From Parcubacteria group bacterium (GTDB lineage: Bacteria; Patescibacteriota; Minisyncoccia; Moranbacterales; UBA2206): a DNA stretch of 64,000 bases. This document shows, piece by piece, positions 900-63,972 of this stretch. The notes under the pieces are model-generated. The model saw only the letters and a list, made by a program, of their open reading frames with translations, did not search any database and had not been told where the DNA came from. Position 1 is the stretch's first letter; each line of letters begins with the position of its first letter. The DNA lies in NCBI GenBank assembly GCA_041659505.1, contig JBAZYF010000001.1, positions 35,654-99,653 of the forward strand, written 5' to 3'. A program made the position numbers and the translations under genes.

Positions 900-1127
900 A
901 ATATTTTCCTCGAATTATTACCTTAAATTCATAACCTAATATATTAGCAGAAATTCGTCCACTTGTCAATGGAAATCTACCGCTAGCCCACTTTTAGCCT
1001 AAATAAGGCCTATTTTGCCAATATTTTTAGGACTTTTATTCTTCCCAGGAACCAGACGACTACCTAGGAAAAAATCCCAGATAAACGCCTAAGTCCTATG
1101 TGGCACAGACCCAAAAATGATTAGAGC

Positions 1128-1305: not shown

Positions 1306-2724
1306 CTACCTACCACCGCTTTGGCTGCCAAGGCTAGCCAGCACGATGTCCATCCGATCGTCAGGAGTGAACGGGTTGTTGTCAGACTGAGTTTCAACGA
1401 TCACAGTTGCGGGAGTATTCCCCTGATCCTGTTGACTGCCGAGACTAGCCATTACCTGATCCATTCTGTCATCAGGAGAATACGATTTTTTACTCAACGT
1501 CTCCTGGGACTGGATTTGATCAGTGGTGGTGGATGCGGTTATCGCAACACCATCTTCAACCACCGGATTAAATCCACTGGCCAAATGATTTCCATACAAG
1601 GCATTGATAGGTTCCTTGCTGGATAACCCAATGCCAACGCCGACACGCCCATCTGTGCTAGCATGGACTTCGGCAATAAGCGTTCCAATTGGAGTCCGCT
1701 GGCGAAGTTCTGACTTCGCCGCACCGGCGCCCATATTACTATGGACCCCTGCTCCAATAAGATTTCTCCATCGGAGATTTTCTGTTAATTGTTTTTCCAA
1801 GCCGATCCAAACATCCAAGGACGTTTGGTCGATCGGAGCGGATCCATTATTGGTAGATTGACCGATTCCTGTCCAGAAATCAGCAATCCCAATTGCCACT
1901 AGGTCAGGTTGGAGCTTATATTGAACTTCACCATAGGCACCAACACCTGCGCCATTTTGGCGAGTTATTGATTCAACCTTCTTGGTTCGTTGACTTTTTC
2001 CGGTCTCCTGGTAGCCAGCTCGGATTTTGAGCTGTTCATACCAAGGCCCCTCTGCATACGTAATACCTGCTTCCGGTGCGATTTTAGCATCGTAACCATC
2101 GGAAGGCGAATGACTCATGTTCCAGGTGGAAAAATTACCGAGAATTCCAAGCCCCAATGAAGTTGGGCTTGCCTGCTCTTTCTGCCAATACATAAACTCG
2201 CCAGTAATTCCCGAGCTTACAACTTGATTTTGCGAACCTGGCTTTTTCAAGTTGAACGTCGCCTTGCCAAGTGCCTCAAGCGCTGAAATACTATTACCAG
2301 AAGCAACCGCATTGTCACTGCTTTTGACGGTCGTTCTTTCTTTTTCATCAGTCTCAGTTGATACAGATGATGAAAGTCCATCCGTAATCAGATTAGAAGA
2401 CGTTGCCGTTACGTTTTTTGTATCAGTTGCAGAAACTTCAGCATTACTCGGCTGAGTACTGCCCTGGTAACTATTGACTTCAACGACCACGTTTTTTTGA
2501 CGACGCACGGGAATCATAAGTTTTTGACCCGGGTAAATTGTATTGGATTTAAGTCCGTTGACTTTCTTGATTTCCTGCCAACGAACACCCTTTTCTCTGC
2601 CAACCACTGAAAGGCAGTCCCCTTTTTTTACCACAATATATTCTTTAACATATTCTTCGGCGCTACAAATTGCTGCGCTAAAGATAATTGTGGCAGAAAG
2701 GATTAACGCTGCGAATTTTTTCAT
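1306..2724 (-). CDS. Secreted LysM domain protein with a long Ser/Thr/Gly-rich region
   Basis: Signal peptide MKKFAALILSATIIFSAAICSA. LysM motif (YIVVKKGDCLSVV...YPGQKLMIP). A low-complexity Ser/Thr-rich linker and a Gly/Ala-rich beta-rich C-terminal part. Two C-terminal repeats TPDDRMDQVMASLGSQ / TPDDRMDIVLASLGSQ. Confidence 0.6.
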   Translation of the reverse strand: MKKFAALILSATIIFSAAICSAEEYVKEYIVVKKGDCLSVVGREKGVRWQEIKKVNGLKSNTIYPGQKLMIPVRRQKNVVVEVNSYQGSTQPSNAEVSATDTKNVTATSSNLITDGLSSSVSTETDEKERTTVKSSDNAVASGNSISALEALGKATFNLKKPGSQNQVVSSGITGEFMYWQKEQASPTSLGLGILGNFSTWNMSHSPSDGYDAKIAPEAGITYAEGPWYEQLKIRAGYQETGKSQRTKKVESITRQNGAGVGAYGEVQYKLQPDLVAIGIADFWTGIGQSTNNGSAPIDQTSLDVWIGLEKQLTENLRWRNLIGAGVHSNMGAGAAKSELRQRTPIGTLIAEVHASTDGRVGVGIGLSSKEPINALYGNHLASGFNPVVEDGVAITASTTTDQIQSQETLSKKSYSPDDRMDQVMASLGSQQDQGNTPATVIVETQSDNNPFTPDDRMDIVLASLGSQSGGR

Positions 2725-2725
2725 G

Positions 2726-3661
2726 TCATCCTCCTTGCTGTAACTGATTTATGATAATCATCCTCTCGATTTCCGAGAGATATTTATTGACGAATAACAT
2801 ATCCTGTCTATTGATGCTCCCGCCCATGCTCCAGGCGATGGGTTTTTTTTCGCTTGCTCGATATAAATCAAAGAAAGCGGAAATACCCATTGAATATAAG
2901 TCGGGGGAAATATAAAACTCCCCCTCCTTTATCCATCGTTGAAAGAAGGTGTCTCCAGGGTTTATTCTGGCCACTTCTTTCATATCAGCAGTTGAGAGTG
3001 GACTAAAAAACTTCCAGCCCTCGGGAGTTGTGTATGGCCTCCACTTTTTCACACTCGCGTAAAAATGTTCCGCCACGGGAAGTTTGGACAACTCAGTCCC
3101 ATGCTTTGCAATAATTTCTTTTCGGAACTGAAAATCCTTTTTAAACCTTTCCCAGTCAAGCGGAAAGCCATTCTTTTCTCTCCCAAGCAGATTGAAGCCA
3201 AACTCCTGCATCGTGGAAAAAGCAATTGCCATTCCTTCTTCGATGCTTTTGCTATAGACAAGCGTCGAATACATTGCGACCTCGGTTTTTCCATCTGATC
3301 TTCTGATTAATTCACCCCAAGGGGTGAATATAATTTGAAGTTCATGCTCTCCGCCTTTTTTGTCGATTATCCAGCCAAACCAAGTGGTACGGCCCGGAGA
3401 CATTTCGGCTTTCAAGCCTTCTGGAAAAATTCCGGTCTTAGCCACGAAAGCTTCTCCTTCGATATCGACTCCGTCGACATTGTACACGCCAATGAAATAT
3501 GGTGGCGACCTTTTTATCTCAATCTCACTTTGCCCCTGACCAGTCACCTCATCTATTGGGGAATTAATTTTAATTCTGTTCTGCGAACAACTCGCAAGAG
3601 TCGCAATCGCTACCATAACCAACAAAACCTGAATAAAACTCTTACTTTTTATCATGATCAA
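2726..3661 (-). CDS. Hypothetical lipoprotein
   Basis: Signal peptide with lipobox (VAIATLASC|SQN). No recognisable catalytic motif. Confidence 0.5.
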   Translation of the reverse strand: MIMIKSKSFIQVLLVMVAIATLASCSQNRIKINSPIDEVTGQGQSEIEIKRSPPYFIGVYNVDGVDIEGEAFVAKTGIFPEGLKAEMSPGRTTWFGWIIDKKGGEHELQIIFTPWGELIRRSDGKTEVAMYSTLVYSKSIEEGMAIAFSTMQEFGFNLLGREKNGFPLDWERFKKDFQFRKEIIAKHGTELSKLPVAEHFYASVKKWRPYTTPEGWKFFSPLSTADMKEVARINPGDTFFQRWIKEGEFYISPDLYSMGISAFFDLYRASEKKPIAWSMGGSINRQDMLFVNKYLSEIERMIIINQLQQGG

Positions 3662-4033: not shown

Positions 4034-4663
4034 TTAGGAAGTAACAAAATGTTCCGCGTATTTATATGGATTGAAAATATAAGTATTTTCTTCCACTATT
4101 CCGCTTATAAGCTTTGCTCCGTGAAAAAAACTAAACACTCTGTCACTTTTTAACTGCAAGTGGGGAAATCCCGCCATAACCAATAGAGCGTTTAATCTTT
4201 TTTGCAGATCGGTACAAAAACGTATATGCGCAATATAGGCCATATGCACAACCTCTTGGATAGTATGCTTATGTTTCTTCGCCATCCCACAAGGAAAGTG
4301 AGTCGCAAGACAAAGCGTTTTTGTTTCCTTAGCTTCAAACAAGTTGGCAATGCTATAGAGAGCACTGTCCTCATGAAACTGCTCAAATCCACCAAAAAGT
4401 CCCGGGCAAAAATTGAGAGGTCCTCCCGGAGGTCCAGCTCCATGAATCCGCTCATTAAACTTCCTCAGATAGTCCAGAAGCTCAATATCCCCATCGGGAC
4501 AGTGATTCCAGACTCCACCATTGTTGGTAAAACCCAGCAATTCTTCTATGGAAAAAGCTTGTAGAACTTGAAACGCTTTCAACTGTTGAGTGTAAGCGTT
4601 ATCCTCCTCGGACATATAACTTTTCTTCTTAGTCAAGCTTGTCATAGCACTCCTTCTTCCCAA
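4034..4663 (-). CDS. Hypothetical Cys-containing protein, last gene of the Hyf-like operon
   Basis: 209 aa, soluble. Five Cys, two in CP dipeptides (NHCPDG, NFCPG, LCLATHFPCG, RFCTD). Lies downstream of the HycE-like gene on the same strand. No family recognised. Confidence 0.35.
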   Translation of the reverse strand: MGRRSAMTSLTKKKSYMSEEDNAYTQQLKAFQVLQAFSIEELLGFTNNGGVWNHCPDGDIELLDYLRKFNERIHGAGPPGGPLNFCPGLFGGFEQFHEDSALYSIANLFEAKETKTLCLATHFPCGMAKKHKHTIQEVVHMAYIAHIRFCTDLQKRLNALLVMAGFPHLQLKSDRVFSFFHGAKLISGIVEENTYIFNPYKYAEHFVTS

Positions 4664-4771: not shown

Positions 4772-6346
4772 CTAAAGATCATTTCCTGAATAGGACAGAT
4801 TGAAACTCTTGTTGATGAGAGGAAAATCCGGCACAATATTGCCTTTTCCGGCGTGACCTACGACCGTCCAGTTAATAAAAGATGGATCGCGCACATCCAC
4901 GCGCGTAATTTGACCATCTGAGTCCGTCACGACAAAATAGACAATCTCGCCCCTCCAGCCTTCACTGATCCCGAGGGCAAAACTGTTTTTTCGCAAAATC
5001 GCCGTTTTGGGATTTACCAGCTCCCCTGGCGCTTCGGCCAATTTTTCCAAAGCTTGTTTTAGAATTTCAAATGAAACGAAAACTTCCTTTATCCGCACAT
5101 GAAGCCGTGCAAAAACATCGCCCTCTTTTTCCAGCGCAATGCCAAAATTCAATTCCGGATAAGCGGCATGGGGATATTCGATCCTGGCATCATGGGCAAT
5201 GCCCAGTGCTCTGCCGGCTACGCCGACAACTCCATGATCAAGCGCTAATTGGCGATCGAGCCGACCAGTACTTTGCAAACGGTTGAGGAGCGTACTACTG
5301 TCATCGGAAATCTCAATCACTTCCGCAAAATCTTTTTTTATTTTCAAAAGTTTTTCTTGTAATTGTTTTCCCGCTTCCGCAGAAATATCTTTCGTTACCC
5401 CGCCAATCACATTCACTCCGCGCAAAAATCGACTGCCGGTCAAACTTTCATTCAGTTGCATGATCATTTCGCGCAGACGACCACCATTGCTTCCGCCAAA
5501 ACTGAATCCGGTATCGAGCATAATAAACCCGATGTCATTAAAATGATTTGCCAGCCGTTCCAATTCAGAAAAAATCACTCGCAGATATTTTGCTCGCGCG
5601 GAGACTTTAGTTTCGGCCAGATTTTCAATCGCCTGGCAAAAAGCCAAACTGTGCGTGAAAGAAGTGTCTCCGGAAACTCTTTCTGACAGGCGCACTTTTT
5701 CCGCCAAGGGCAATGTTTCAAAAAGTTTTTCAATTCCCTTATGCTTATAGCCCAGTTTCGGCTCCAAAAGAACCACTTCCTCTCCCACCACGCTAAAACG
5801 AAAATGTCCCGGTTCGATAATTCCGGCATGCACCGGACCGACGGGAATTTCATAGATTCCCTCCCCCTTTACTTTCAAAAATTCATAAGTTCCAGTCGCT
5901 TGGGCAGGACGTTCTTGCCAATTAAAATCTTTCCGTAAAGGAAAAACTCCCGCCGGCCAATTTTCATGCAAAAGCATCCCTCGCGCATTAGGATGGCCGA
6001 GTGGTTCAAGACCAAAAAAACTTTTTATCCGCCGTTCATAGCCGGACGCTTCATGAATTGCTTTGGTGATCGAAGGAAAGCCTTTGCCGTCTTGGATGGT
6101 AATGTAGGGCGTCAAAAAAACATTTTCCCCTGGCACGCCAAAAACATAGAAGATGCGAAAACCGATTCCCGCTTTTCTCTCATCCGTCGCCGTGATAGTT
6201 TTCAGTTGCAACTTGTGGTCAAAATACAACTCATTACAAACAGTCAAAAGTTCCGCGGTCGGGACAGCATAAGTCAAAACATTGCCATCCTGCTTGACGG
6301 AAAAACTTTTGGGAATATATTTTTCTTGGATTTCGCTTTGATTCAT
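4772..6346 (-). CDS. HycE/HyfG-like large subunit of a group-4 [NiFe]-hydrogenase (NuoC-NuoD fusion) lacking all four Ni-Fe ligand cysteines
   Basis: Aligns by eye to E. coli HycE: the NuoC-like N-terminal domain, the GPVHAGIIEPGHFRF motif, and RVSGDTSFTHS in place of RVCGICGFAHS. The C-terminus FNLSYSGNDL replaces LDPCYSCTDR. Confidence 0.8.
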   Translation of the reverse strand: MNQSEIQEKYIPKSFSVKQDGNVLTYAVPTAELLTVCNELYFDHKLQLKTITATDERKAGIGFRIFYVFGVPGENVFLTPYITIQDGKGFPSITKAIHEASGYERRIKSFFGLEPLGHPNARGMLLHENWPAGVFPLRKDFNWQERPAQATGTYEFLKVKGEGIYEIPVGPVHAGIIEPGHFRFSVVGEEVVLLEPKLGYKHKGIEKLFETLPLAEKVRLSERVSGDTSFTHSLAFCQAIENLAETKVSARAKYLRVIFSELERLANHFNDIGFIMLDTGFSFGGSNGGRLREMIMQLNESLTGSRFLRGVNVIGGVTKDISAEAGKQLQEKLLKIKKDFAEVIEISDDSSTLLNRLQSTGRLDRQLALDHGVVGVAGRALGIAHDARIEYPHAAYPELNFGIALEKEGDVFARLHVRIKEVFVSFEILKQALEKLAEAPGELVNPKTAILRKNSFALGISEGWRGEIVYFVVTDSDGQITRVDVRDPSFINWTVVGHAGKGNIVPDFPLINKSFNLSYSGNDL

Positions 6347-6356
6347 ATTAGTTAGG

Positions 6357-6531
6357 AGTTACACGTTTCCCCTCACAGCCGTATTTTCTAAAAAAATAAC
6401 TCGAACGCCCTTTTTTTCTTTTCAAATTTTTCCCTCTATCAACGGCAACCAGTGGAAAATTTTGAAGAAAAAAGGCATTCTCAGGCACGTTTTTTTAGAA
6501 AATACGGCTGACTCGGGCAAACACGTAAGTC
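6357..6531. mobile_element. MITE-like inverted-repeat element, family 1, copy A
   Basis: About 175 bp with ~40 bp imperfect terminal inverted repeats (...ACACGTTTCCCCTCACAGCCGTATTTTCTAAAAAAA / TTTTTTTAGAAAATACGGCTGACTCGGGCAAACACGTAAGT). The whole element matches 26684..26857 in inverted orientation. Confidence 0.75.
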
Positions 6532-6534
6532 ATA

Positions 6535-7980
6535 TTAGTAGACTAAACTGGCACTAGTTATTAGGGAATTTATTGTTGCAGGGATAAAAATACTCAAATA
6601 AACTAGAAGAACCACCAAGATGAGCACCGGAAAAATTGTCCAAACGCCAGACTCGCCAACCGGAACATTCTCTTCATTTTCCCCAAAAATCATCGCGACC
6701 ACATGGCGGAGGAAACCGACAAAGATCAATGCCAGCGCCAAGAGCGCAATAATTGTGACGGCAGGATGACTGCTGATCCCAGCGGACAGAATCGAAAATT
6801 CGGTGACAAAAATTCCAAACGGTGGCATACCAGTGATGGCCAAAAAGCCAATAAGAAACAAAATGCTCGTAACCGGCAAGACTTTGAGGACGCCTTTCAC
6901 TTTAGCAATTTTAGTGGAGCTATATTTCAAAAAGATATTGCCCGCTGACAAAAACAAAATTGATTTGGCCAAGGAGTGATAGATCATATGCAAGATTGCC
7001 GCGAAAATTCCCACACCACCAAATCCAAACCCTAGTGCCATCACGCCCATATGTTCGATGCTGGAATAGGCCAAGAGTCGTTTGTAATTTTTTTGGATGA
7101 AAATGATCGCAGCCGCGACAATAATTGAAATGATACCGAAAAAAATGAGCATCTGGGAAGAAAAATTTGCTCCCACAGCAAGATCCACAATCACTTTGAA
7201 CCGCAAGATTGCCAGAAATGCCACATTGAGGAGCACGCCAGAAAGCAAACTGCTAATTGGCACCGGTGCCTTGCTGTGGGCATCGGGTAGCCAAGTATGC
7301 ATCGGCACAAACCCGACCTTCGTTCCATAGCCAATCAGGATAAAGATAAAAGCAATCTTGGCAACAAACGGATCAAGACCAGAGGCGTTGACTAGTAGCG
7401 CATGCCAATTGACCAGGCCGTGATTTCCCGCCGCGAAAGAAGGGTAGAGAAAAATCAAAGTGCCAAAAAAAGCTAGTAAAAGTCCGACCGAGTTAACAAT
7501 CAAATATTTCCAAGCCGCTTCCATCGCCGATGGCTTGTTATAAAAACTGATCAAAAATGCCGTGGAAAGAGTAGTCGCTTCGATCATTACCCACATCAGG
7601 ATCGGATTGGTCGTGCTGATGGCAAAAAACATCGCAAGCAGAAATAGGTGCAAAAGGATGAAATATTCTCGCACCCGATGAAATCCGATAATGCCTTTTT
7701 TCACCTCCACTTGCAAATAGCCCGTAGAATACCAAGAAGCTACAAATCCGATGATCGCCACCAAAAGAAGCAGGATTGCTCCTAATGGATCGATGGAAAG
7801 ATAGGGTGTCCAAGCATAACTACCCTTTTGCGCCACGACCGACACCACAATCAGCGCTGAAATAAGCTCAATGGAAGAAGCCAAAATTGCAATCGTATTT
7901 AGCGGTTGAATCTTTTTCCTGACCAAAAAAGACAAGCCGGAAGCAATGAAAGGAATAAAGATGATAAGAAATAGAGCCAT
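6535..7980 (-). CDS. HyfF/HyfD/NuoN-like antiporter-type membrane subunit
   Basis: 481 aa polytopic protein with the NuoL/M/N/MrpD signature (GFVPMHTWLPDAHSKAPVPISSLLSGVLLNVAFLAILRF). Confidence 0.75.
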   Translation of the reverse strand: MALFLIIFIPFIASGLSFLVRKKIQPLNTIAILASSIELISALIVVSVVAQKGSYAWTPYLSIDPLGAILLLLVAIIGFVASWYSTGYLQVEVKKGIIGFHRVREYFILLHLFLLAMFFAISTTNPILMWVMIEATTLSTAFLISFYNKPSAMEAAWKYLIVNSVGLLLAFFGTLIFLYPSFAAGNHGLVNWHALLVNASGLDPFVAKIAFIFILIGYGTKVGFVPMHTWLPDAHSKAPVPISSLLSGVLLNVAFLAILRFKVIVDLAVGANFSSQMLIFFGIISIIVAAAIIFIQKNYKRLLAYSSIEHMGVMALGFGFGGVGIFAAILHMIYHSLAKSILFLSAGNIFLKYSSTKIAKVKGVLKVLPVTSILFLIGFLAITGMPPFGIFVTEFSILSAGISSHPAVTIIALLALALIFVGFLRHVVAMIFGENEENVPVGESGVWTIFPVLILVVLLVYLSIFIPATINSLITSASLVY

Positions 7981-18854: not shown

Positions 18855-19034
18855 TGTCATTCCCGCGAAGGCGGGAATCCAGGTTCCACTTGCCCTAAAC
18901 CCTGGAAAATCGAATTATAAATCCCCTAACTTCTTATTATCAACCAACAAATCCCGTTTTTCTTTTCTTATCACCTGAGGTGCCTGGATTCCCGCCGGAG
19001 TTTATCCTCGTGTAGACGGGGGCGGGAATGACAC
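18855..19034. mobile_element. MITE-like element, family 2, copy 1, between atpF and atpH
   Basis: TGTCATTCCCGCGAAGGCGGGAATCCAGGTTCCAC ... CACCTGAGGTGCCTGGATTCCCGCC ... GGGCGGGAATGACAC. A near-identical architecture occurs at 34207..34366. Confidence 0.7.
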
Positions 19035-20831: not shown

Positions 20832-20849
20832 AATTATTCATTACTTATA

Positions 20850-21006
20850 TCCCCTTCTCCATTAGGGAGAAGGTGCCCGAAGGGCGGATGAGGGAGAAGT
20901 CTTTCAATAACCACCCTCAATACTCATAGCACTTTTTTTATATCAACACCCTTTTCCCTCACCTGTCACGAGTACGTGACATCCTCTCCCTAAGGGCGAG
21001 GAGGAT
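20850..21006. mobile_element. MITE-like element, family 3, copy 1
   Basis: Left arm CCCCTTCTCCATTAGGGAGAAGGTGCCCGAAGGGCGGATGAGGGAGAAG. Right arm CCCTTTTCCCTCACCTGTCACGAGTACGTGACATCCTCTCCCTAAGGGCGAGGAGG. The arms are mutually inverted. A homolog lies at 52680..52837. Confidence 0.65.
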
Positions 21007-21286
21007 TTTCTGAATTATTTTTTAATTGTTTCTTTTCATCAGCTTCCTTGTCGATCTGTTTCATTGCCTCCAATGAGTCCTTGACTATTCCGTAAGTTGA
21101 AACAACAAGAGCCACTCCCACACACAGCAGAAACAATTTCGGCTCAGTGGAATATCTTTTGTCCAGCCACTTTCCCAGAAATAATGCGATAATGACTGGC
21201 CCGCCGATCCAACCACTCAGTCGTCCGAACAAAACCAAACTTGGCTGCCACCACAGCATCTTTGTTTCCTTTTTCTTACTATTCAT
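20990..21286 (-). CDS. AtpZ/AtpI-like small membrane protein at the head of the ATP synthase operon
   Basis: 98 aa. WWQPSLVLFGRLSGWIGGPVIIALFLGKWLDKRY resembles the AtpZ (PF09527) pattern. The C-terminal codons overlap the family 3 element. Confidence 0.5.
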   Translation of the reverse strand: MNSKKKETKMLWWQPSLVLFGRLSGWIGGPVIIALFLGKWLDKRYSTEPKLFLLCVGVALVVSTYGIVKDSLEAMKQIDKEADEKKQLKNNSENPPRP

Positions 21287-22768: not shown

Positions 22769-22794
22769 ATGAAAGTGTCATAAAAAAATATTGT

Positions 22795-22822
22795 CATTCC
22801 CGCGAAGGCGGGAATGACACAA
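22795..22822 (-). terminator. Solo family-2 palindrome acting as a metG terminator
   Basis: TGTCATTCCCGCGAAGGCGGGAATGACA is a 12-bp stem with a GAAG loop. On the minus strand it is followed by ATATTTTTTTATG. Confidence 0.55.
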
Positions 22823-25642: not shown

Positions 25643-26668
25643 CTATTCTGCCTTTCTTCTCTCCATAAAATCGTTAATTACCAAACTGATCGCAGTTGCC
25701 ACTGGAATGGCCAAAATTGCACCCAACACTCCACCCAGACGCAAGCCCACAAGAAGAGCAATGATCGTTGCGACCGGATTGAGTCCGACCGCTTTTTTCA
25801 TCACTTGAGGAACAATCACGTGATTTTCCACCTGTTGCGCGATAAGATAGACGAGAAGGGCGAGAAATCCCGTTGTGGGAGAAATCAAAAAGCCTAAAAT
25901 TATACCAGGAATGGCGGAAATGATCGGCCCGATATAGGGAACTATTTCCATCACACCGGCAAAAATCGCCAGGATCAGCGCGTAAGGAACACCGACCAAA
26001 TAAAGTCCGATCGCATCCAGGACAAAAATTATGAGCATCAAAAGTAATTGCCCCAGCATCCATTTCCCAATCTTTTCTTTGACTCTTGTTGCAAGGTTAG
26101 CGGCATAATTTTTAAAACGATCCGGCGTAACCGAGATGATGAACTTCTTGATTCCATTTTCCTCGACTGTCATATAGAACGCCAGAGAAAAAACCACGAT
26201 TATGGAAATGAACCCGGAAAAAACATTGGCCGTTGTAGAAAAAATATCTCCCGAAAGTCCTGTTAGTGATCTGGAAAAATTATTCGACAATTGTTCTAGA
26301 TCAAGCTGGATATTTTTGCTAGCAAAAAAATCTTTCAAATGAGAAAGAGAGGTCGCTCCAGATTGGAAATAGCTGGGAAAATTTTGGGAAAAATCCTGAA
26401 ACTGAGCAATCATCGGCGGGATAAGAAATGAAATGGCTAGGCCAATGGCGAGAAATAGCAAAAAAAACAACCCTAAAACACCGGCCGTACGCGGAATTTT
26501 CCACCTCTGTAACCAGTCCACTAGCGGGTCCATCGCCGAAGTAATAATTACCGCGATAAAAACCAAAGCGATCACATCCATCACAAGATACATAAACCAT
26601 AGTCCCAGGAGGATGAGGATGGTGCGAAAAACTATTCCGGTCGAAATTTCAATTTCATTTTTTTGCAT
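25643..26668 (-). CDS. AI-2E family transporter (PerM/UPF0118)
   Basis: 341 aa, eight TM helices. EIVPYIGPIISAIPGIILGF motif. Confidence 0.75.
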   Translation of the reverse strand: MQKNEIEISTGIVFRTILILLGLWFMYLVMDVIALVFIAVIITSAMDPLVDWLQRWKIPRTAGVLGLFFLLFLAIGLAISFLIPPMIAQFQDFSQNFPSYFQSGATSLSHLKDFFASKNIQLDLEQLSNNFSRSLTGLSGDIFSTTANVFSGFISIIVVFSLAFYMTVEENGIKKFIISVTPDRFKNYAANLATRVKEKIGKWMLGQLLLMLIIFVLDAIGLYLVGVPYALILAIFAGVMEIVPYIGPIISAIPGIILGFLISPTTGFLALLVYLIAQQVENHVIVPQVMKKAVGLNPVATIIALLVGLRLGGVLGAILAIPVATAISLVINDFMERRKAE

Positions 26669-26683
26669 AAAATCAGTATTAGA

Positions 26684-26857
26684 ACTTACGCACTTGACCG
26701 AGTCAGCCGTGTTTTCTTAAAAAATCCTGTCTGAGAATGCCTTTTTTCTTCAAAATTTTCCATTGGCTGCCTTTGATAGAGGGAAAATTTTGAAAAGAAA
26801 AAAGAGCGTTCGAGTTATTTTTTTAGAAAACACGGCTGCGAGGCAAAACACGTATAT
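26684..26857. mobile_element. MITE-like element, family 1, copy B, inverted relative to copy A
   Basis: Its reverse complement aligns base-for-base with 6357..6531 over its whole length, roughly 85-90% identical by eye, including the CAGCCGTRTTTTCTAAAAAA terminal repeats. Confidence 0.75.
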
Positions 26858-26865
26858 CCTAAATA

Positions 26866-28134
26866 TTAAATACTCAATAATTTTTGCAACTTTTCACTAT
26901 TCTTGTGCGGTCCGATAATTGCTAAATTTAATTTTTTATTTTGAAAAATATCTTTTGCCACTTGCAAAATATCTTCCGGTGTCACTGAATCGACCCGGCG
27001 GAAAATTTCTTCCCGCTTCAAAATCTCACGCCGCGAAAGTTCCTGCCCGACAAAAAACATTGCGACCTCGTCCGACGCTTCCATCCCCATTACCATCTTG
27101 CCTTTGATGTAATCCTTGGCTTTTTGTAATTCCTTTTCCGGCACTTTTTCCGTCGCAATCTTTTTGTATTCAGCTAAAATTGTTTCTAGCGCTAGCGTCA
27201 GATTTTTATGTTCCACGCCCGCTTGTGTCGCCAGATATCCACACTCCTCAAATGATTCAGTGTTAGTGCGGACATAATAGGCTAAACCTTTTTTCTCTCG
27301 CACTTCCATAAACAGCCGACTAGACATATTCCCGCCGAGAATAATCGAAAGCAAGGAAAGTGCGAAACGCCTTTCACTATATTGGTCATAGGCGCGCGCA
27401 CCCAAAATCAATTGCGTCTGATCAGTTTTTTTAAATTTAATCTTCACCGCCGGAACTTTTTGCGTTTCTTTCACTTTTTTGAGTTGTGGTTTTTTGCCGT
27501 CAGACATTTCGCGGAAATATTTTTTCACCCGCTCCACCAGTTTCTTTTCATCAAACTTTCCCGCCACACAAATCACAGTGTCATTAGAGAGATAGAACCG
27601 TTTCATATATTTCAAAAAATCCTTGCGCTTGAAACTATTGATCGTTTTTTTGTACCCAATAATATCCCGCCCCAGATCAGTTCCCGGATAGAGCAAATTT
27701 TCAAACACATCGCCAACGTTGCGCATCGGCATATCCTCATACATATTCAATTCCTGGATGATCGTTCCGCGCTCTTTTTCCAGTTCCACTTCTTCGATTT
27801 TGGAATGCAGATACATATCCGACACAACATCCAGCGCTGTGTCAATGTGCTTGGCGTCAACTTTGACATAATAGCCAGTCGAATCTTTGGAAGTGAAAGC
27901 ATTGAATTCTCCGCCAATCGCATCCAATTCTTCCGCAATTGAAAGTGTCGTTGGCCTTTTTTCCGTTCCCTTAAAAAACATATGCTCGATAAAATGAGAA
28001 AGCCCAGCTTCCTTTTCCGCTTCATAGCGACTGCCGACACCCACTATCACCACAACCGTCACAGTTTGCGTCTCAAGCATCGGCACGGTCAAAATTCTCA
28101 GGCCGTTTTTTAGATTGGTTTTTTTATAATTCAT
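26866..28134 (-). CDS. M16-family zinc peptidase (insulinase-like)
   Basis: The inverted zincin motif HFIEHMFFKGT (HxxEH) and a downstream Glu. Confidence 0.8.
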   Translation of the reverse strand: MNYKKTNLKNGLRILTVPMLETQTVTVVVIVGVGSRYEAEKEAGLSHFIEHMFFKGTEKRPTTLSIAEELDAIGGEFNAFTSKDSTGYYVKVDAKHIDTALDVVSDMYLHSKIEEVELEKERGTIIQELNMYEDMPMRNVGDVFENLLYPGTDLGRDIIGYKKTINSFKRKDFLKYMKRFYLSNDTVICVAGKFDEKKLVERVKKYFREMSDGKKPQLKKVKETQKVPAVKIKFKKTDQTQLILGARAYDQYSERRFALSLLSIILGGNMSSRLFMEVREKKGLAYYVRTNTESFEECGYLATQAGVEHKNLTLALETILAEYKKIATEKVPEKELQKAKDYIKGKMVMGMEASDEVAMFFVGQELSRREILKREEIFRRVDSVTPEDILQVAKDIFQNKKLNLAIIGPHKNSEKLQKLLSI

Positions 28135-33216: not shown

Positions 33217-34213
33217 ACTTCAAAAAATATTCCTTCGGGCGCATTTCCGCCTCAACCACCTTTTTCCAATCAAGATTGACTTCTGAAACACGCACCACCT
33301 TTCCCTCATTATAACATATTGGGTCAATCACGCGCGACTTGCAAAAAACTTGTGCGTCATAATTATTGGGATTATTCGCGTAACCCACTCGATTATTCAT
33401 TCGTTCCCAAAGTTTTTTTAGTATCTTATCTTTCTCCAAGAACTGGTTAATTTTTCCCAGCACTTCCACATCAGTCAGATATAAATCTTCTTTCGAAATA
33501 TATTTTTTTTCTATGGCACACTTCAAATAATCACCAGTCGTGCGAAACATTACTGCCGATTCGATCCCAGAATAAAAATATTTATTGGCATGAAAAAATA
33601 AATCAGAAAAATTTTGCGCAGAGCTATAATCCCCAAAAATCCACCGTCCATCTTTCACAATTAAACTAGCCAAAATGCTAGGGATTTTCTTGGCATATGC
33701 TGGCGCATATCTGTGGAAATGCCAAATGTCTCGCAGGGAATAATCAATCCGGTCAGCACAAGTATCGGGTAGACTGTTCTCTTTCAAAGGAAAATTTTTG
33801 TCGTTCAAAATATAGTCCAAATCAAAGCCATGCCTGGAAAGAATGGCCGGAATTTCAGAATTACCCACGAAGGAATTGAAAATATTATCCTGGTGCGTTT
33901 GCTCCTTTTGCGATCCTTCCGCAAAAACATAATCGGCGGAATGAGAAAAAGCACTGTGCGAAACATCATGGATAAGACCGGCAATCTGCTCAGAAAGTTC
34001 TGCACCAAATTGGCGCAAAAGCAGATAGGCGCCGACGGAATGCTCAAAGCGAAAATAAGTTGCTCCAGGAAAAAAAGGCTCCATATATCCATGTTGATCA
34101 ATGTCTTTAAGTCGCTGCATCGCGGGACAGGCCATCAACTCCAGAATTACCGGCTCAGTGATTTCATTTTCTCCGTAAATTGGATCAATGTATTGCATAA
34201 TACTATGTGTCAT
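33200..34213 (-). CDS. HD-domain metal-dependent phosphohydrolase
   Basis: H...HD motif (EHSVGAY...GLIHDVSHSAFSH). The start codon lies inside the family 2 element. Confidence 0.7.
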   Translation of the reverse strand: MTHSIMQYIDPIYGENEITEPVILELMACPAMQRLKDIDQHGYMEPFFPGATYFRFEHSVGAYLLLRQFGAELSEQIAGLIHDVSHSAFSHSADYVFAEGSQKEQTHQDNIFNSFVGNSEIPAILSRHGFDLDYILNDKNFPLKENSLPDTCADRIDYSLRDIWHFHRYAPAYAKKIPSILASLIVKDGRWIFGDYSSAQNFSDLFFHANKYFYSGIESAVMFRTTGDYLKCAIEKKYISKEDLYLTDVEVLGKINQFLEKDKILKKLWERMNNRVGYANNPNNYDAQVFCKSRVIDPICYNEGKVVRVSEVNLDWKKVVEAEMRPKEYFLKFAESL

Positions 34214-34366
34214 TCCCGCGAAGGCGGGAATCCAGGTTCCACTATTTATAAACCCTAAAAAATCGAATTATAAATTTTCTAACTTCTATTTTCTAATCAT
34301 TAAATCTCGTTTTTCTTTTTTTATAACCTGAGGTGCCTGGATCCCCGCCTCCGCGGGGATGACACG
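34207..34366. mobile_element. MITE-like element, family 2, copy 2
   Basis: TGTGTCATTCCCGCGAAGGCGGGAATCCAGGTTCCACT ... CCTGAGGTGCCTGGATCCCCGCCTCCGCGGGGATGACAC. Covers the HD-gene start codon and the last ~27 codons of the U32 gene. The U32 C-terminus reads ...RVIPAEAGIQAPQVIKK from the repeat. Confidence 0.7.
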
Positions 34367-36539: not shown

Positions 36540-37745
36540 TTATTTTTTTATTTCCCCGCGCAATTCCCTCATCAAGTCCATATAGAACTTCAAATTATGG
36601 ATCGCGCAGAGGCGCATCGCCAAAGGATCTTTCATTGCAAAAAGATGTCGCAGATAACTCCGCGTATAATTTTTGCACAGCTGGCAATCACAACTAACAT
36701 CTACCGGCGAAAAATCTTTCCTAAACTTTCCATTGTTGATATTAATCGTTTCATAAAACAATTCCGCATCCGCATTTTTTTTGTCACCTGCCTGCCGGTA
36801 GGCAAGGTTAGAAATTTTATCATTGGAATTTATTTTGAAATTGGAAATTAGAAATTGGAAATTACTTTTCCGTAGGAAAAGTCGCCCGTGCCTTCCCTCC
36901 CGCGTCGGAATCACACAATCAAACATATCCCAGCCGCACGCGACGAATTTAACAATATCATCCGGCGTTCCTACGCCCAAAGCGAATCTTAGAGCATTTT
37001 CCGGAATCAGTCTGGCAGTTTCTCGCACGACGTCTTCCATAAAATTGCCCTGCGCGTCAACGTGCCGTGCGCCAAAGCCATAACCGTCAAAGCCGATCGC
37101 GACTAATTTTTCCGCACAATATTTTCGCAAATCAGCGTGTCCTCCGCCTTGAATGACGCCGAAAATTAACGGCCGATTTTCCTTAGCTATTTTTCTCTTT
37201 TTCAATTGCTTTTCATATTCCACCTTGCACCGCGCAGCCCAAAGGATTGTCCGCTCGACTGCGTCCTTGATTTTTTCTTTTGAGTAACTATTCGGCGGCA
37301 CATCATCTAAAACCACCATCATATCCACCCCCAGATCAAACTGGATCTGGATCGATTTTTCCGGTGAAATGGTATGCATCGAACCGTCCAAGGGTGATTT
37401 AAAAATGACCGCCTCATCGGTAATTTTCCCCATTTCGGGATTTTTATGAATCAAGGAAAAAACTTGATAGCCGCCCGAATCAGATAGGAGCGGCGCATGC
37501 CAATTCATAAACTGATGGGTCCCTCCGGCCTTTTTTATGAGTTCCGTCCCAGGCTGGAGATAGAGATGATAGGTATTGACCACCATCGGGAAAATTCCCG
37601 TTCCCAAAAGATCATCGCGATCCAGCGATTTCACAAAACCGCGCGTCGCGTCAGGCATAAAAAACGGGGTAGCGACTACTCCGTTTTTTGTCTTGATTTG
37701 ACCGCTCCGTGCCTGGTCTTTTTTGTGCTTCAGTTCAAACATCAA
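36540..37745 (-). CDS. tgt: Queuine tRNA-ribosyltransferase
   Basis: TGT family along the full length, with DSGGYQVFSL and the zinc site CDCQLCKNYTRSYLRHL. Confidence 0.85.
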   Translation of the reverse strand: MMFELKHKKDQARSGQIKTKNGVVATPFFMPDATRGFVKSLDRDDLLGTGIFPMVVNTYHLYLQPGTELIKKAGGTHQFMNWHAPLLSDSGGYQVFSLIHKNPEMGKITDEAVIFKSPLDGSMHTISPEKSIQIQFDLGVDMMVVLDDVPPNSYSKEKIKDAVERTILWAARCKVEYEKQLKKRKIAKENRPLIFGVIQGGGHADLRKYCAEKLVAIGFDGYGFGARHVDAQGNFMEDVVRETARLIPENALRFALGVGTPDDIVKFVACGWDMFDCVIPTREGRHGRLFLRKSNFQFLISNFKINSNDKISNLAYRQAGDKKNADAELFYETININNGKFRKDFSPVDVSCDCQLCKNYTRSYLRHLFAMKDPLAMRLCAIHNLKFYMDLMRELRGEIKK

Positions 37746-44275: not shown

Positions 44276-44361
44276 GGAGAGGTGGCTGAGTGGCTGAAAG
44301 CACCACACTGCTAACGTGGCAAGGGGTAAAACCCTTCGAGGGTTCAAATCCCTCCCTCTCC
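44276..44361 (+). tRNA. tRNA-Ser (anticodon GCT)
   Basis: GGAGAGG acceptor, long variable arm, anticodon loop cTGCTaa, T-arm GGTTCAAATCC, 3' acceptor CCTCTCC-G. Confidence 0.85.
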
Positions 44362-44365
44362 GCCT

Positions 44366-44640
44366 TCGCCACGCCGTAGCTTCAGCGAAGGCGGGCTTCG
44401 CCAAAGCTACGGCATGGCTACGGCGTGACAAGTCCGCTCAGGACTCAGCGAAGGCGGGCTTCGCCAAAGCTACGGCATGGCTACGGCGTGACAAGTCCGC
44501 TCAGGACTCAGCGAAGGCGGGCTACGGCATGGCTACGGCGTGACAAGTCCGCTCAGGACTCAGCGAAGGCGAGCTTCGCCAAAGCTACAGCGTAACTACG
44601 GCGTGACGCAGTCCGCAAGAAACCATGCGAAAGCGGGATT
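44366..44640. repeat. GC-rich tandem repeat array (about 63-bp unit, about 4 copies) after tRNA-Ser(GCT)
   Basis: The unit CAGCGAAGGCGGGCTTCGCCAAAGCTACGGCATGGCTACGGCGTGACAAGTCCGCTCAGGACT is repeated head-to-tail. One copy lacks TTCGCCAAAG. Confidence 0.75.
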
Positions 44641-44673
44641 TACTACGCTACAATATTCTCAAAATAAAAAGCT

Positions 44674-44904
44674 ATGTATTATGTCTATAGTCTAAAATGC
44701 AAGGATGGATATTATGTCGGTTGCACAGATAATCTTAAAGATAGAATAATTAGACATCAAAACGGCTACGTACCAGCAACTAAAAATAGACTGCCCTTGA
44801 AATTGGATTTTTATTTTGCAATGAACGATAAATATAAAGCATTTGAATTTGAAAAATACCTAAAATCAGGATCCGGACGTGCTTTTTCTGTGAAGCATTT
44901 TTAA
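44674..44904 (+). CDS. Small GIY-YIG nuclease-domain protein
   Basis: 76 aa. YYVYSLKCKDGYYVGCTDNLKDRIIRHQNG matches the GIY-(10-11)-YIG ...R...H..G core. Sits between the two tRNA-Ser genes. Confidence 0.65.
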   Translation: MYYVYSLKCKDGYYVGCTDNLKDRIIRHQNGYVPATKNRLPLKLDFYFAMNDKYKAFEFEKYLKSGSGRAFSVKHF

Positions 44905-44913
44905 AAAACAATG

Positions 44914-45000
44914 GGAGAGATGGCCGAGTGGTTTAAGGCAACAGTCTTGAAAACTGTCGTACTGTTAAAGGTACCGTGAGTTCGAATCTCACTCTCTCCG
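44914..45000 (+). tRNA. tRNA-Ser (anticodon TGA)
   Basis: GGAGAGA acceptor, anticodon loop cTTGAaa, long variable arm, T-arm GAGTTCGAATCTCAC, 3' acceptor TCTCTCC-G. Confidence 0.85.
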
Positions 45001-45176
45001 CCTTCGCCACGCTGAAGCGTGGCTTCGGCGTGACGCAGTCCGCCAGAAGCCATGCGAAAGCGGGATTCGCTACGCCGAAGCGTGGCTACGGCGTGACGCA
45101 GTCCGCCGTGGATACGCGTAGGCGAGCTTCGCCACGCCAGAACAAACATTCGGCGTGACGCAGTCCGCCAGAAGAA
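45000..45176. repeat. GC-rich repeat array after tRNA-Ser(TGA), related to 44366..44640
   Basis: CGGCGTGACGCAGTCCGCC occurs three times. It shares GTGACGCAGTCCGC(C/A)AGAA(G/A)CCATGCGAAAGCGGGATT with the end of the first array. Confidence 0.65.
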
Positions 45177-45194
45177 TAGTTAAAATAAATAATT

Positions 45195-45267
45195 GCGCTT
45201 ATAGCTCAGTGGATAGAGCGTCTGGTTGCGGTCCAGAAGGTCGCAGGTTCGATTCCTGCTAAGCGCA
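45195..45267 (+). tRNA. tRNA-Arg (anticodon reads GCG)
   Basis: GCGCTTA acceptor, D-arm GCTCAGTGGATAGAGC, anticodon stem TCTGG/CCAGA with loop tTGCGgt, T-arm GCAGGTTCGATTCCTGC, 3' acceptor TAAGCGC-A. Confidence 0.7.
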
Positions 45268-45270
45268 CAA

Positions 45271-47364: not shown

Positions 47365-47469
47365 TCAGAACCACTGATTCGCACGTGATTTTCCTGATTA
47401 CACATGATTGAATTCTGATTTTCCCCCATCAGTGAAATCAGTGTAATCAGAGTTAATCAGTGGTTCAGA
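47365..47469. mobile_element. MITE-like element, family 5, copy 2
   Basis: TCAGAACCACTGATT ... AATCAGTGGTTCAGA. Inverted homolog of 18353..18452. The right repeat supplies the last codons LNH* of the GT4 gene and abuts the recG stop. Confidence 0.65.
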
Positions 47470-48602
47470 CACCCCGTATACACCTTCAAAAGTTTCTCCG
47501 CACAAACCTCGCTCGTAAAATTTTCCCGCGCAATTTTGCCTGACGCTTCACCAAAACGCTTGCGTAAACTTTCATCGTTAATCAATTTCAAAACGGCAGT
47601 GGAAAATTCCTTTTCATCTTCTCGCACTAAAAATCCATTGGCCTTGTTAAGGGCGAGACTGCTGATGCCGGTGGAATCGACCGCTACGATGGGAAGATAC
47701 ATATGCATCGCTTCGAGCGGAATAATCCCTTGTGTTTCAGATTTGGAACCGTAGACGAAAATATCCGCCGCGGCATAATAATTTTTTAACTCATCATGCG
47801 AAACTAGACCGGCAAAAATCACTGAAGCGGAAAGATTATTTTCCTCACAATATTTTTTCAACTTTGGCAAAAGATAACCATCCCCTGCCACAAGAAATTT
47901 TACTTTTTTATTTTGCGCCAAAACATCCCTTACTGAGCGAAAAATAAATTCAATATTTTTTTCTTCCGTCAAACGAGACACCAAAAACAGTACGGTCTCG
48001 TCTGGGGCGATGCTATAAATTTTCCGCACGACTTCTCGATCAGCTCCGTCAAATTCTTCCGCCTTGATGCCGGTCGCGATCGGAATGATTTCTTTTTGCA
48101 CGCCCCACTTTTTCAAAATCGGAATAATGGAAGCGGTTGGGGCGATGACTGCATCAGAATGATTAGCATATTCAACTGCCTTTTTTATAATATAATTCGC
48201 CGCCCATTTTTTGGGAATGAGCGGAATAAAATTCGTATATTGATCGTAGAGCGTATGCCAAGTGAACACGAGTGGGATTTTCTTTTTTTTGGCCCAACGC
48301 ATCGCAGCCGAACCCAAAAGATTGGGATGTTGGGAATGGATGATATCAATTTTCAAGTCTTTCAGAATTCGATGAATTTTCCAAGAATATGGAATCGGCA
48401 AGGGAAAGCGAAATTTAAATTCAATATCAATTGATGGAAAACGAAAAACATTCGGATTTTTATCCGCATAGTCTTTCCATTTGGGCGCGAAAATATAGAC
48501 GGTGTGGCCACGCTTTTCCAGCTCCGCGCGAAAAGTTTCGACGGAAACCGTCACTCCGTATGGATTAGGCAAGTAATTGTTGGTGAAAATGGCAATATTC
48601 AT
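47457..48602 (-). CDS. Family 4 glycosyltransferase (group 1)
   Basis: 381 aa, GT-B fold. E...E motif region ETQGIIPLEAMHMYLPIVAVDSTGISSL. Confidence 0.75.
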   Translation of the reverse strand: MNIAIFTNNYLPNPYGVTVSVETFRAELEKRGHTVYIFAPKWKDYADKNPNVFRFPSIDIEFKFRFPLPIPYSWKIHRILKDLKIDIIHSQHPNLLGSAAMRWAKKKKIPLVFTWHTLYDQYTNFIPLIPKKWAANYIIKKAVEYANHSDAVIAPTASIIPILKKWGVQKEIIPIATGIKAEEFDGADREVVRKIYSIAPDETVLFLVSRLTEEKNIEFIFRSVRDVLAQNKKVKFLVAGDGYLLPKLKKYCEENNLSASVIFAGLVSHDELKNYYAAADIFVYGSKSETQGIIPLEAMHMYLPIVAVDSTGISSLALNKANGFLVREDEKEFSTAVLKLINDESLRKRFGEASGKIARENFTSEVCAEKLLKVYTGCLNH

Positions 48603-52679: not shown

Positions 52680-52837
52680 CTCCCCTTCGCCCTTAGGGAG
52701 AAGGTGGCCGAAGGCCGGATGAGGGAAAGGGCGTTAGATAAAATTATTACTTTCCTACACAGAACATTTTTATTTTTTAGTATCACCCTTGCCCTCACCT
52801 GTCCTTCGGACATCCTCTCCCGAGGGGAGAAGAGGAT
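52680..52837. mobile_element. MITE-like element, family 3, copy 2
   Basis: CTCCCCTTCGCCCTTAGGGAGAAGGTGGCCGAAGGCCGGATGAGGGAAAGGG ... CCCTTGCCCTCACCTGTCCTTCGGACATCCTCTCCCGAGGGGAGAAGAGG. The arms are mutually inverted and homologous to 20850..21006. Confidence 0.65.
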
Positions 52838-62641: not shown

Positions 62642-62650
62642 TTTGCCTTC

Positions 62651-62753
62651 AATTTCTAATTTCTAAACAATTTCTAATTTATTAATGACTGAATTTTTAA
62701 ATTAAGTCATTTTTAAAATTGTTTGAAAATTGTAAATTGTAAATTGAAAATTT
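62651..62753. repeat. About 110-bp AT-rich leader repeat, copy 2, between pilC and the large pilin gene
   Basis: Homologous to 17621..17732 over its whole length. Confidence 0.55.
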
Positions 62754-63972
62754 ATTTTATATTATCCATAAGACTATACATCGGCTGAAGCATCGAAATC
62801 GCAAAAAATCCCACTGCACCTCCAATAAAAATCATTAACACTGGCTCTATAATCGAGGACATATTTTTTGATATTTGATCAATTTCATCTTCATAAAATT
62901 CCGCTAATTTTAAAAGGACAGTTTCTGTTTTTCCCGTTTCCTCCCCGACTTGAGCCATCTGCGCCATCAGCACCGGAAAGACTTTGGTATTTTTCTGGAT
63001 AACCTTACTGAGACTAATTCCCTTTTGAACATCTTCAATCCCCGCCCTGGTGGCTTCTTTGTAATAATAATTGGTCAGGGTATTGGAAATTATAGTCAGT
63101 GCCTCCACTACAGGCACTCCGCTGCGTAAAAGCGAGCTGTATATTCTAGCAAACCTGGCGCAATTGATTTTTATCACCATATTACTGACGACTGGGATAT
63201 TTATCATAGCAAAGCCCAGTATTTTTTTACCAAATTCTGTCGTCAAAAGAAATCTCGCCACAATGATTAAAAAAACAAAGGATACGGCCACCATAACTGA
63301 GTGTGCTCTTAAAAAATTGCTCATACCGATGATAAATTGCGTCGAGGCTGGCAATTGTACATCCATATCCGCAAAAACACCCATCATTTTTGGTAAAATA
63401 TATGTTAGCATCAGAACGGCAATGCCAATCATTGCCACAACAATCACTGCTGGATAAGTCATTGCGCCCTTGATCTTGCTCATCAGATTATGTTCTTTTT
63501 CCAATTGAACAGATAATATTTCCAAGATTTCCTCCAAATTTCCGCTCGACTCGCCCACTCGGATCATATTAACAAATAGATCTCCAAAAATTGCCGGGTA
63601 GCGCGCCAACCCATCAGCAAAAGTCATCCCAGATTGTATATCGTCAAAAACACTATTCAATATTTTTCGAAATCCTTTGTTCCTCGTTTGCAAGGATATA
63701 TTTTGGACGGCTCTGGAAATCGGTAATCCTGAAGCAACCATCACGCTTAGATTACGAGTAAACATCAACTTATCCTTAAGAGAGATACTAAAAAAACGAT
63801 CCAATAATTTCACTTGAGCATCACTCTTCTCCTTTGTTTTTAACTCCTTAAAAGAAGTCAAAATAAAACCATCCGAACGGAGCTGTGCCGCTAGATCTCT
63901 TTCATTTTTCACCTCTAGTTCTCCCGCTTTCGTCTCGCCAGAATAACTTTTTGCGCTATAGAACACCTTCAT
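62752..63972 (-). CDS. pilC: Type IV pilus inner-membrane platform protein PilC (GspF family)
   Basis: 406 aa. Two GspF-type repeats each followed by TM helices (AMTYPAVIVVAMIGIAVLMLTYILP..., EPVLMIFIGGAVGFFAISMLQPMYSL). Confidence 0.8.
   Translation of the reverse strand: MKVFYSAKSYSGETKAGELEVKNERDLAAQLRSDGFILTSFKELKTKEKSDAQVKLLDRFFSISLKDKLMFTRNLSVMVASGLPISRAVQNISLQTRNKGFRKILNSVFDDIQSGMTFADGLARYPAIFGDLFVNMIRVGESSGNLEEILEILSVQLEKEHNLMSKIKGAMTYPAVIVVAMIGIAVLMLTYILPKMMGVFADMDVQLPASTQFIIGMSNFLRAHSVMVAVSFVFLIIVARFLLTTEFGKKILGFAMINIPVVSNMVIKINCARFARIYSSLLRSGVPVVEALTIISNTLTNYYYKEATRAGIEDVQKGISLSKVIQKNTKVFPVLMAQMAQVGEETGKTETVLLKLAEFYEDEIDQISKNMSSIIEPVLMIFIGGAVGFFAISMLQPMYSLMDNIK

Follow-up and report, generated by a model that had tools for sequence, protein, structure and literature searches.

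The analysed stretch of DNA, hereafter the window, is 64,000 nt long and comes from an organism whose nearest named relatives are Moranbacteria/Moraniibacteriota. It carries two copies of an element designated family 1, copy A inside a hydrogenase-like operon and copy B between genes for an AI-2E transporter and an M16 peptidase. The Pfam families of the neighbours agree with the original prediction, which had placed copy A between HyfF-like and HycE-like genes and copy B at the transporter–peptidase junction. The features of the two sites are as follows.

4772..6346, minus strand: NuoCD/HycE-like gene, fused Complex1_30kDa/49kDa (Pfam)
6344..6352: flanking direct repeat 1 of copy A, CATATTAGT (ACTAATATG on the minus strand); the ATG of the NuoCD-like gene lies within it
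6353..6530, minus strand: family 1 copy A, 178 nt (the strand given is the orientation of the copies in contigs L003, L024 and L050, described below)
6353..6396: terminal inverted repeat arm of copy A, TAGGAGTTACACGTTTCCCCTCACAGCCGTATTTTCTAAAAAAA
6408..6477: inner palindrome of copy A, CCCTTTTTTTCTTTTCAAATTTTTCCC ... GGAAAATTTTGAAGAAAAAAGG, the loop at its centre being variable
6490..6530: opposite terminal inverted repeat arm of copy A, reverse complement ACTTACGTGTTTGCCCGAGTCAGCCGTATTTTCTAAAAAAA
6531..6539: flanking direct repeat 2 of copy A, CATATTAGT, which holds the TAA stop codon (6535-6537) of the antiporter-like gene
6535..7980, minus strand: antiporter-like (HyfF/NuoN-type) gene, Proton_antipo_M (Pfam)
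25643..26668, minus strand: AI-2E transporter gene (Pfam)
26675..26683: flanking repeat 1 of copy B, TCTAATACT on the minus strand, matching the other repeat at 7/9 positions
26684..26861, plus strand: family 1 copy B, 178 nt, inverted relative to copy A
26862..26870: flanking repeat 2 of copy B, TTTAATATT on the minus strand, overlapping the M16 stop codon (26866-26868)
26866..28134, minus strand: M16 peptidase gene (Pfam)

The two copies had been described as near-identical in opposite orientation, with terminal inverted repeats of about 40 bp. BLAST recovered them as an inverted pair with 86.6% identity over 186 nt (E 4.2e-56), the matches appearing as pairs I1, I2 and I4 in the inverted-pair listing of the window, and the arms were found to span ~41-44 nt with the outer bases counted in. 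The limits first proposed, 6357..6531 and 26684..26857, were roughly right, and the flanking duplication now fixes the 178-nt boundaries at 6353..6530 and 26684..26861. The distances of 11 bp and 4 bp given between copy A and the neighbouring start and stop codons did not hold up, since the ATG (6344-6346) and the TAA both fall within the flanking repeats.

The 21-nt core of the arms, CAGCCGTRTTTTCTWAAAAAA, sits twice in each element, once on each strand, and thus occurs four times in the window against 0.01 expected. The consensus ends of the family are TAGGA[C/G]TTACGYGTTT...CAGCCGTRTTTTCTAAAAAAA, and its inner palindrome reads CCTTTTTT.CTTTTCAAA.TTTTCC / GGAAAATTTTGAAGAAAAAAGG. Owing to the terminal arms and this inner palindrome, RNA folding renders each of the two intergenic regions as one long hairpin, with a minimum free energy of -71.5 kcal/mol for copy A and -66.8 kcal/mol for copy B (z of -7.35 and -8.17, respectively; 0 of 200 shuffles fold equally well). 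Open frames are not kept across the copies, and a concatenated six-frame translation of the element, aimed at miscalled ORFs, found no match among 5.8 billion proteins. Family 1 is non-coding.

Empty sites and target-site duplication

The direct repeat around copy A is perfect (9/9 bp, ACTAATATG on the gene strand), and the gene strand reads ...GTCT ACTAATATG (ACTTACG...GTAACTCCTA) ACTAATATG AATC..., with the element in parentheses. The empty-site test for copy A used the relatives L071, L072 and L073, in which the NuoCD-like protein is 71-77% identical. In all three, the element is absent and the antiporter-like and NuoCD-like genes are 1-7 nt apart: the junction of the closest one, L071, reads ...gtttagtttACTAATATGagcATGG..., with the same 9-mer present once, and the gap is 1 nt in L072 and L073. 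The single 9-mer and the close genes of the relatives indicate that the ancestral state was a translationally coupled TAAtATG junction. At the level of sequence comparison, these relatives demonstrate that copy A is an insertion by which 187 nt, the element plus the duplication, were gained and the junction was duplicated. They demonstrate in the same way that it split the TAAtATG stop/start of two translationally coupled genes, and that the duplication rebuilt the stop codon on one side of the element and the start codon on the other.

The search for M16 homologues yielded much closer relatives than that for the NuoCD-like protein. In L097, whose M16 protein is 96% identical, the stop-to-ATG gap measures 10 nt (TAATTTTACGTTTATG), and in L103/L104 (90% identical) it measures 9 nt; the element is absent from all of them. 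When the element and one flanking 9-mer are removed from the window, the remaining junction is TAATATTGATTTTATG, with a 10-nt spacer as in L097. The alignment with these close relatives thus demonstrates that copy B, too, is an insertion with a gain of 187 nt, and it took place after the split from the relative with the 96%-identical M16 protein. Copies A and B have opposite orientations with respect to transcription, all the flanking genes being on the minus strand.

In other relatives, the M16/AI-2E junction holds a different element. A GC-rich palindromic family of ~165 nt, present in the window at 20846..21011 and 52681..52837 (TATATCCCCTTCTCCCT.AGGGAGAAGG...), occupies this junction in L098 (90%; 4085-4325), L099/L100 (88%; L099 11270-11479) and L101/L102 (91%; L101 3425-3630). 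With this family and copy B at the same junction, the 10-nt spacer is an insertion hot spot for several families.

The borders of the copies were checked for target-site duplications, as the original prediction had proposed, and the flanking 9-mers match at 9/9 positions for copy A and 7/9 for copy B. The L024 copy is likewise flanked by a 7/9 repeat (AAAAACACG / AAAAATATG), so that 9-base direct repeats fit three copies, and the L003 copy has no recognisable flanking duplication. The four nucleotides beside the ACTTACG end (TATG, TAGA, CACG, CACG) resemble the TAGG that opens the other end, and L003 and L024 have ACACGA in common. An element of 182 nt that duplicates 5 bp (ACTAA, ATATT/ATACT, AAAAA) therefore appears about as likely as one of 178 nt that duplicates 9 bp, and the empty sites do not separate the two models, because both add 187 nt. 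A TA duplication of the IS630-like or Correia kind would leave 7 extra nt relative to the empty sites at both A and B and was rejected. A reading as an integron attC site was also rejected, given that the empty sites demand 187 added nucleotides and that the flanking genes are core operon genes.

Further copies and related repeats

Additional copies were sought beyond the window, and three were found, all in other Patescibacteria sequences. An exact scan of 185,579 species genomes with the arm core returned one real copy, in a Candidatus Moraniibacteriota MAG (L003 5518-5696), and the same scan of the JGI metagenomes returned two (L024 1219-1397 and L050 1-113); the remaining matches were chance 20-mers. 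The spread of the family across genomes is thereby established. The L050 contig, which begins inside its copy, comes from metagenome Ga0172379, a sample that also holds the exact proteins of the window's organism. Pairwise identity is 86.6-89.4% within the window and between genomes alike, with the exception of L003 and L050 (96%), and these similar values suggest an old and diverse family without a recent burst. For a comparison of host with element divergence, no orthologues common to the window and the loci of the other copies were found. All copies are intergenic, at 0-25 nt from the next start codon, and such closeness is expected because the spacers of this genome are 1-10 nt long. Our full-text literature search found no paper on MITEs in CPR/Patescibacteria.

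Two copies lie in the 64 kb of the window, and Logan contigs break inside the element. A search for sequence past the ends of the window yielded only short contigs interrupted at repeats. The contigs L001 (1-54) and L002 (1-54), from two samples, correspond to window 6347-6400 and are interrupted at one and the same position within copy A. The break point adjoins a 33-mer, GCGTTCGAGTTATTTTTTTAGAAAATACGGCTG, that is common to the L003 and L050 copies; the breaks fit other copies with a common 33-mer and suggest that further copies exist in those two samples.

Two other elements of the window have related ends:

1028..1098: short element, 71 nt, with similar termini TAGGACTT ... AAGTCCTA
11684..12214, minus strand: NuoB-like gene, on one side of the family C element
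12226..12378: family C element, 153 nt, with ends AGAGGACTTACGYGTT and 33-nt inverted arms
12226-12258 and 12346-12378: arms of the family C element, 85% complementarity, inverted pair I6
12501..12941, minus strand: atpC, on the other side of the family C element

The original prediction had proposed that the element at 12.2 kb shares its termini alone with family 1. The common end proved to be real and longer than had been noted, a 16-nt GACTTACGTGTTTGCC shared between family C and the end of copy A, and the interiors of the two show no similarity. This end turns up again in the 71-nt element. The 71-nt element may be a decayed or deleted relative. No clear duplication was seen at any of the family C and 71-nt elements. 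Positions 2396-2541 and 3228-3369 (the contig end) of L050 are family C relatives whose first 30 nt are 97% identical, and this contig therefore carries a family 1 copy and two family C relatives. Given the shared terminus and the co-occurrence on L050, a common transposase for families 1 and C seems plausible, and it is reasonable to infer that one transposase would serve both families and the 71-nt element. The two family C-like copies of L050 have the same orientation and lie on either side of a 225-aa glycosyltransferase-like ORF (2552-3229), at whose stop codon the second of them starts. Such a layout looks like a composite unit, but the contig ends inside the second copy.

The window is rich in other repeats. 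Blocks of ~100-nt repeats, 76-84% identical, lie at 14368-14881 and 17717-18351 and occupy two unusually long gaps of the ATP synthase operon, 14360-15108 (atpD/atpG) and 17613-18439 (before atpA); in the relative L099, the gap before atpA contains a 110-aa ORF instead. A direct repeat pair of 142 nt (18855-18996 and 34208-34349, 86% identical) opens with the 25-mer TTGTCATTCCCGCGAAGGCGGGAAT, which has a third, lone occurrence at 22791-22815. Repeats of ~120 nt with AATTTCTAA-like units lie at 17631-17751 and 62648-62763 (85% identical) and also at 36823-36869, and the contigs L095 and L096, from other assemblies of the same organism, start at a AATTTCTAA-like repeat. A self-complementary element of ~100 nt is found in inverted copies at 18351-18452 and 47365-47471 (81% identical, 93% over a 46-nt core). 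GC-rich tandem and interspersed repeats, with units such as GCTACGGCGTGACGCAGTCCGC, occupy 44276-45270 directly after and between three tRNA genes, against 42% GC for the window overall.

Mobility of family 1 and rival readings

We consider it highly probable that family 1 is a non-autonomous DNA transposon (MITE) of Moranbacteria-type Parcubacteria. At 178 nt, it lies well within the size of such elements (less than ~600 bp), it carries terminal inverted repeats, and its orthologous sites are empty in L071, L072 and L073 for copy A and in L097 and L103/L104 for copy B. A fixed-length duplication, another hallmark, is seen at 9/9 positions for A, at 7/9 for B and L024, and not at all for L003. 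A transposase supplied in trans would bind both ends and insert the element into short AT-rich spacers, the targets being ACTAATATG, TTTAATATT and AAAAATATG. The resulting duplication would measure 9 bp, or 5 bp should the outermost 4 nt be part of the element. Once inserted, the element would be transcribed together with the operon, forming a long RNA hairpin, and would otherwise be passive, carrying no promoter or terminator consensus. The filled and empty sites establish the insertions and their duplications directly, whereas we infer the enzyme, the transcribed hairpin and any influence on translational coupling or on the processing of the mRNA.

An autonomous insertion sequence with the same terminal repeats was sought and not found: no transposase or insertion sequence with these ends was seen among the larger ORFs checked in the window, and none in the 185,579 species genomes and the JGI metagenomes with exact 20-21-mers, which a diverged partner could escape. 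Viral contigs, scanned for the arm core, for the terminus common to the families and for an internal pattern of two anchors, gave chance matches inside coding sequence only, and blastn against plasmids and phages gave one 48-nt chance match and nothing further.

The hairpins might also be more than passive. On this reading, the family would in addition depend on a transposase encoded outside the genome, for example in a phage or in the host on which this organism, probably an episymbiont, lives. The stem reunites the duplicated stop and start codons, and the hairpin might thereby keep translation coupled across the 178-nt insertion; alternatively, an RNase III cut in the hairpin might uncouple the two halves of the hydrogenase-like operon. 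We regard this extended version, by either route, as unlikely.

It is improbable, in our estimation, that the element is primarily a functional structured RNA or a cis-regulatory hairpin under selection, such as an RNase III site or an attenuator tuning the downstream gene, with mobility secondary. The hairpins are indeed very stable, all copies end 0-25 nt upstream of a start codon, and one-sided changes mostly retain a G-U pair. Two base pairs show compensatory double changes: in copy B, A-U has become G-C, and in L003 and L050, U-A has become C-G. However, two compensatory pairs among 52 in five sequences, where ~0.5-1 would be expected by chance on our own estimate, are not significant and amount to a hint at most. 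The proximity to start codons is what short spacers of 1-10 nt would produce in any case, and relatives lack the element at both sites. Moreover, copies A and B point in opposite directions with regard to the genes around them, and the strand with the better fold is not the transcribed one in every case: it is the sense strand for A and L024 and the antisense strand for L003 and the family C copies, while the two strands of B fold equally well. Selection at the RNA level was accordingly rejected as a reading of the strand asymmetry, its pattern being inconsistent across copies. No Rfam family matches at the gathering threshold; at an E-value threshold, only generic long-hairpin microRNA-precursor models appear, with 31 bits against cut-offs of 140-245. 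Consensus scans found no promoter or terminator inside copy A or B.

A palindrome might instead be moved as single-stranded DNA by an HUH/Y1 enzyme (REP/RAYT, IS200/IS605-like) rather than by a DDE transposase. That the entire element, beyond its ends, is nearly one hairpin and that several further palindromic families lie between the genes of this genome would suit such a route. REP/RAYT and IS200/IS605-derived palindromes are not known to duplicate their target on insertion or to carry long terminal inverted repeats, whereas the insertions described here add a 5-9-bp duplication, and the window proteins that were checked included neither a RAYT nor a TnpA. We therefore hold this mechanism to be very improbable. 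The chance that the assembler duplicated or misplaced one sequence, which the original prediction had named as one possible refutation, is practically negligible: short-read contigs do break inside the element, but 13% of positions differ between copies A and B, two independent Logan assemblies show the junction of copy A with its gene at 100% identity, and diverged copies occur in unrelated contexts on three other contigs.

Taken as a MITE, family 1 provides a clean case, at the sequence level, of active DNA transposition in a CPR bacterium with a very small genome (~0.66 Mb). Two insertions can each be compared with their empty sites, and the target duplication, as it happens, restores both a stop and a start codon. 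In this clade, the same 10-nt spacers between genes are contested by several palindromic families that are unrelated to one another. The family should be of use in genome annotation, in explaining the fragmentation of short-read assemblies and in strain tracing, and it leaves the understanding of how MITEs work unchanged.

Comparison with known mobile elements

Family 1 is a new family of a known and ordinary kind of mobile DNA. Bacterial MITEs include the Correia elements of Neisseria, the ERIC/IRU elements of enterobacteria and the RUP elements of Streptococcus pneumoniae. As these are generally described, family 1 resembles them in being non-coding and intergenic, with a length of 100-200 nt and terminal inverted repeats; its presence, like theirs, varies between relatives, and it would also form a co-transcribed hairpin inside operons, as they often do. 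It differs from Correia and RUP by its duplication of 9 or 5 bp instead of TA, and from all three by its CPR/Patescibacteria host and by the lack of similarity to the plasmids and phages searched. Membership of the Correia or IS630-type MITEs was rejected, since the empty sites exclude a TA duplication.

MITEs with 9-bp duplications derive from IS4, IS5(IS903) or IS1-type elements, an example being MITEAba12 of Acinetobacter. Family 1 is like this type, as usually described, in having a 9-bp AT-rich direct repeat around a short element with inverted ends; its inverted repeats are much longer, however (~41-44 nt), and its parent insertion sequence was not found. We know of no insertion-sequence end that matches the family 1 end TAGGACTTACG. 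The Tn3-derived TIMEs, as commonly portrayed, also have long inverted repeats (~38-40 bp) and share with family 1 a possible 5-bp AT-rich duplication, but the ends of family 1 are TAGGA.../ACTTACG... and not GGGG, and no Tn3-type transposase was seen. Family 1 was therefore not assigned to the TIMEs, a 5-bp duplication being one of two options. Nor was it assigned to the REP/BIME (RAYT) elements, given its 178 nt against 20-40 nt, its duplication, and the fact that no RAYT was seen among the proteins checked.

The Rickettsia palindromic elements (RPEs), as we understand them, offer a further parallel, in that palindromic repeats persist in a very small genome. RPEs are often inserted in-frame inside genes, whereas all the copies of family 1 are intergenic, with a target duplication at copies A, B and L024.
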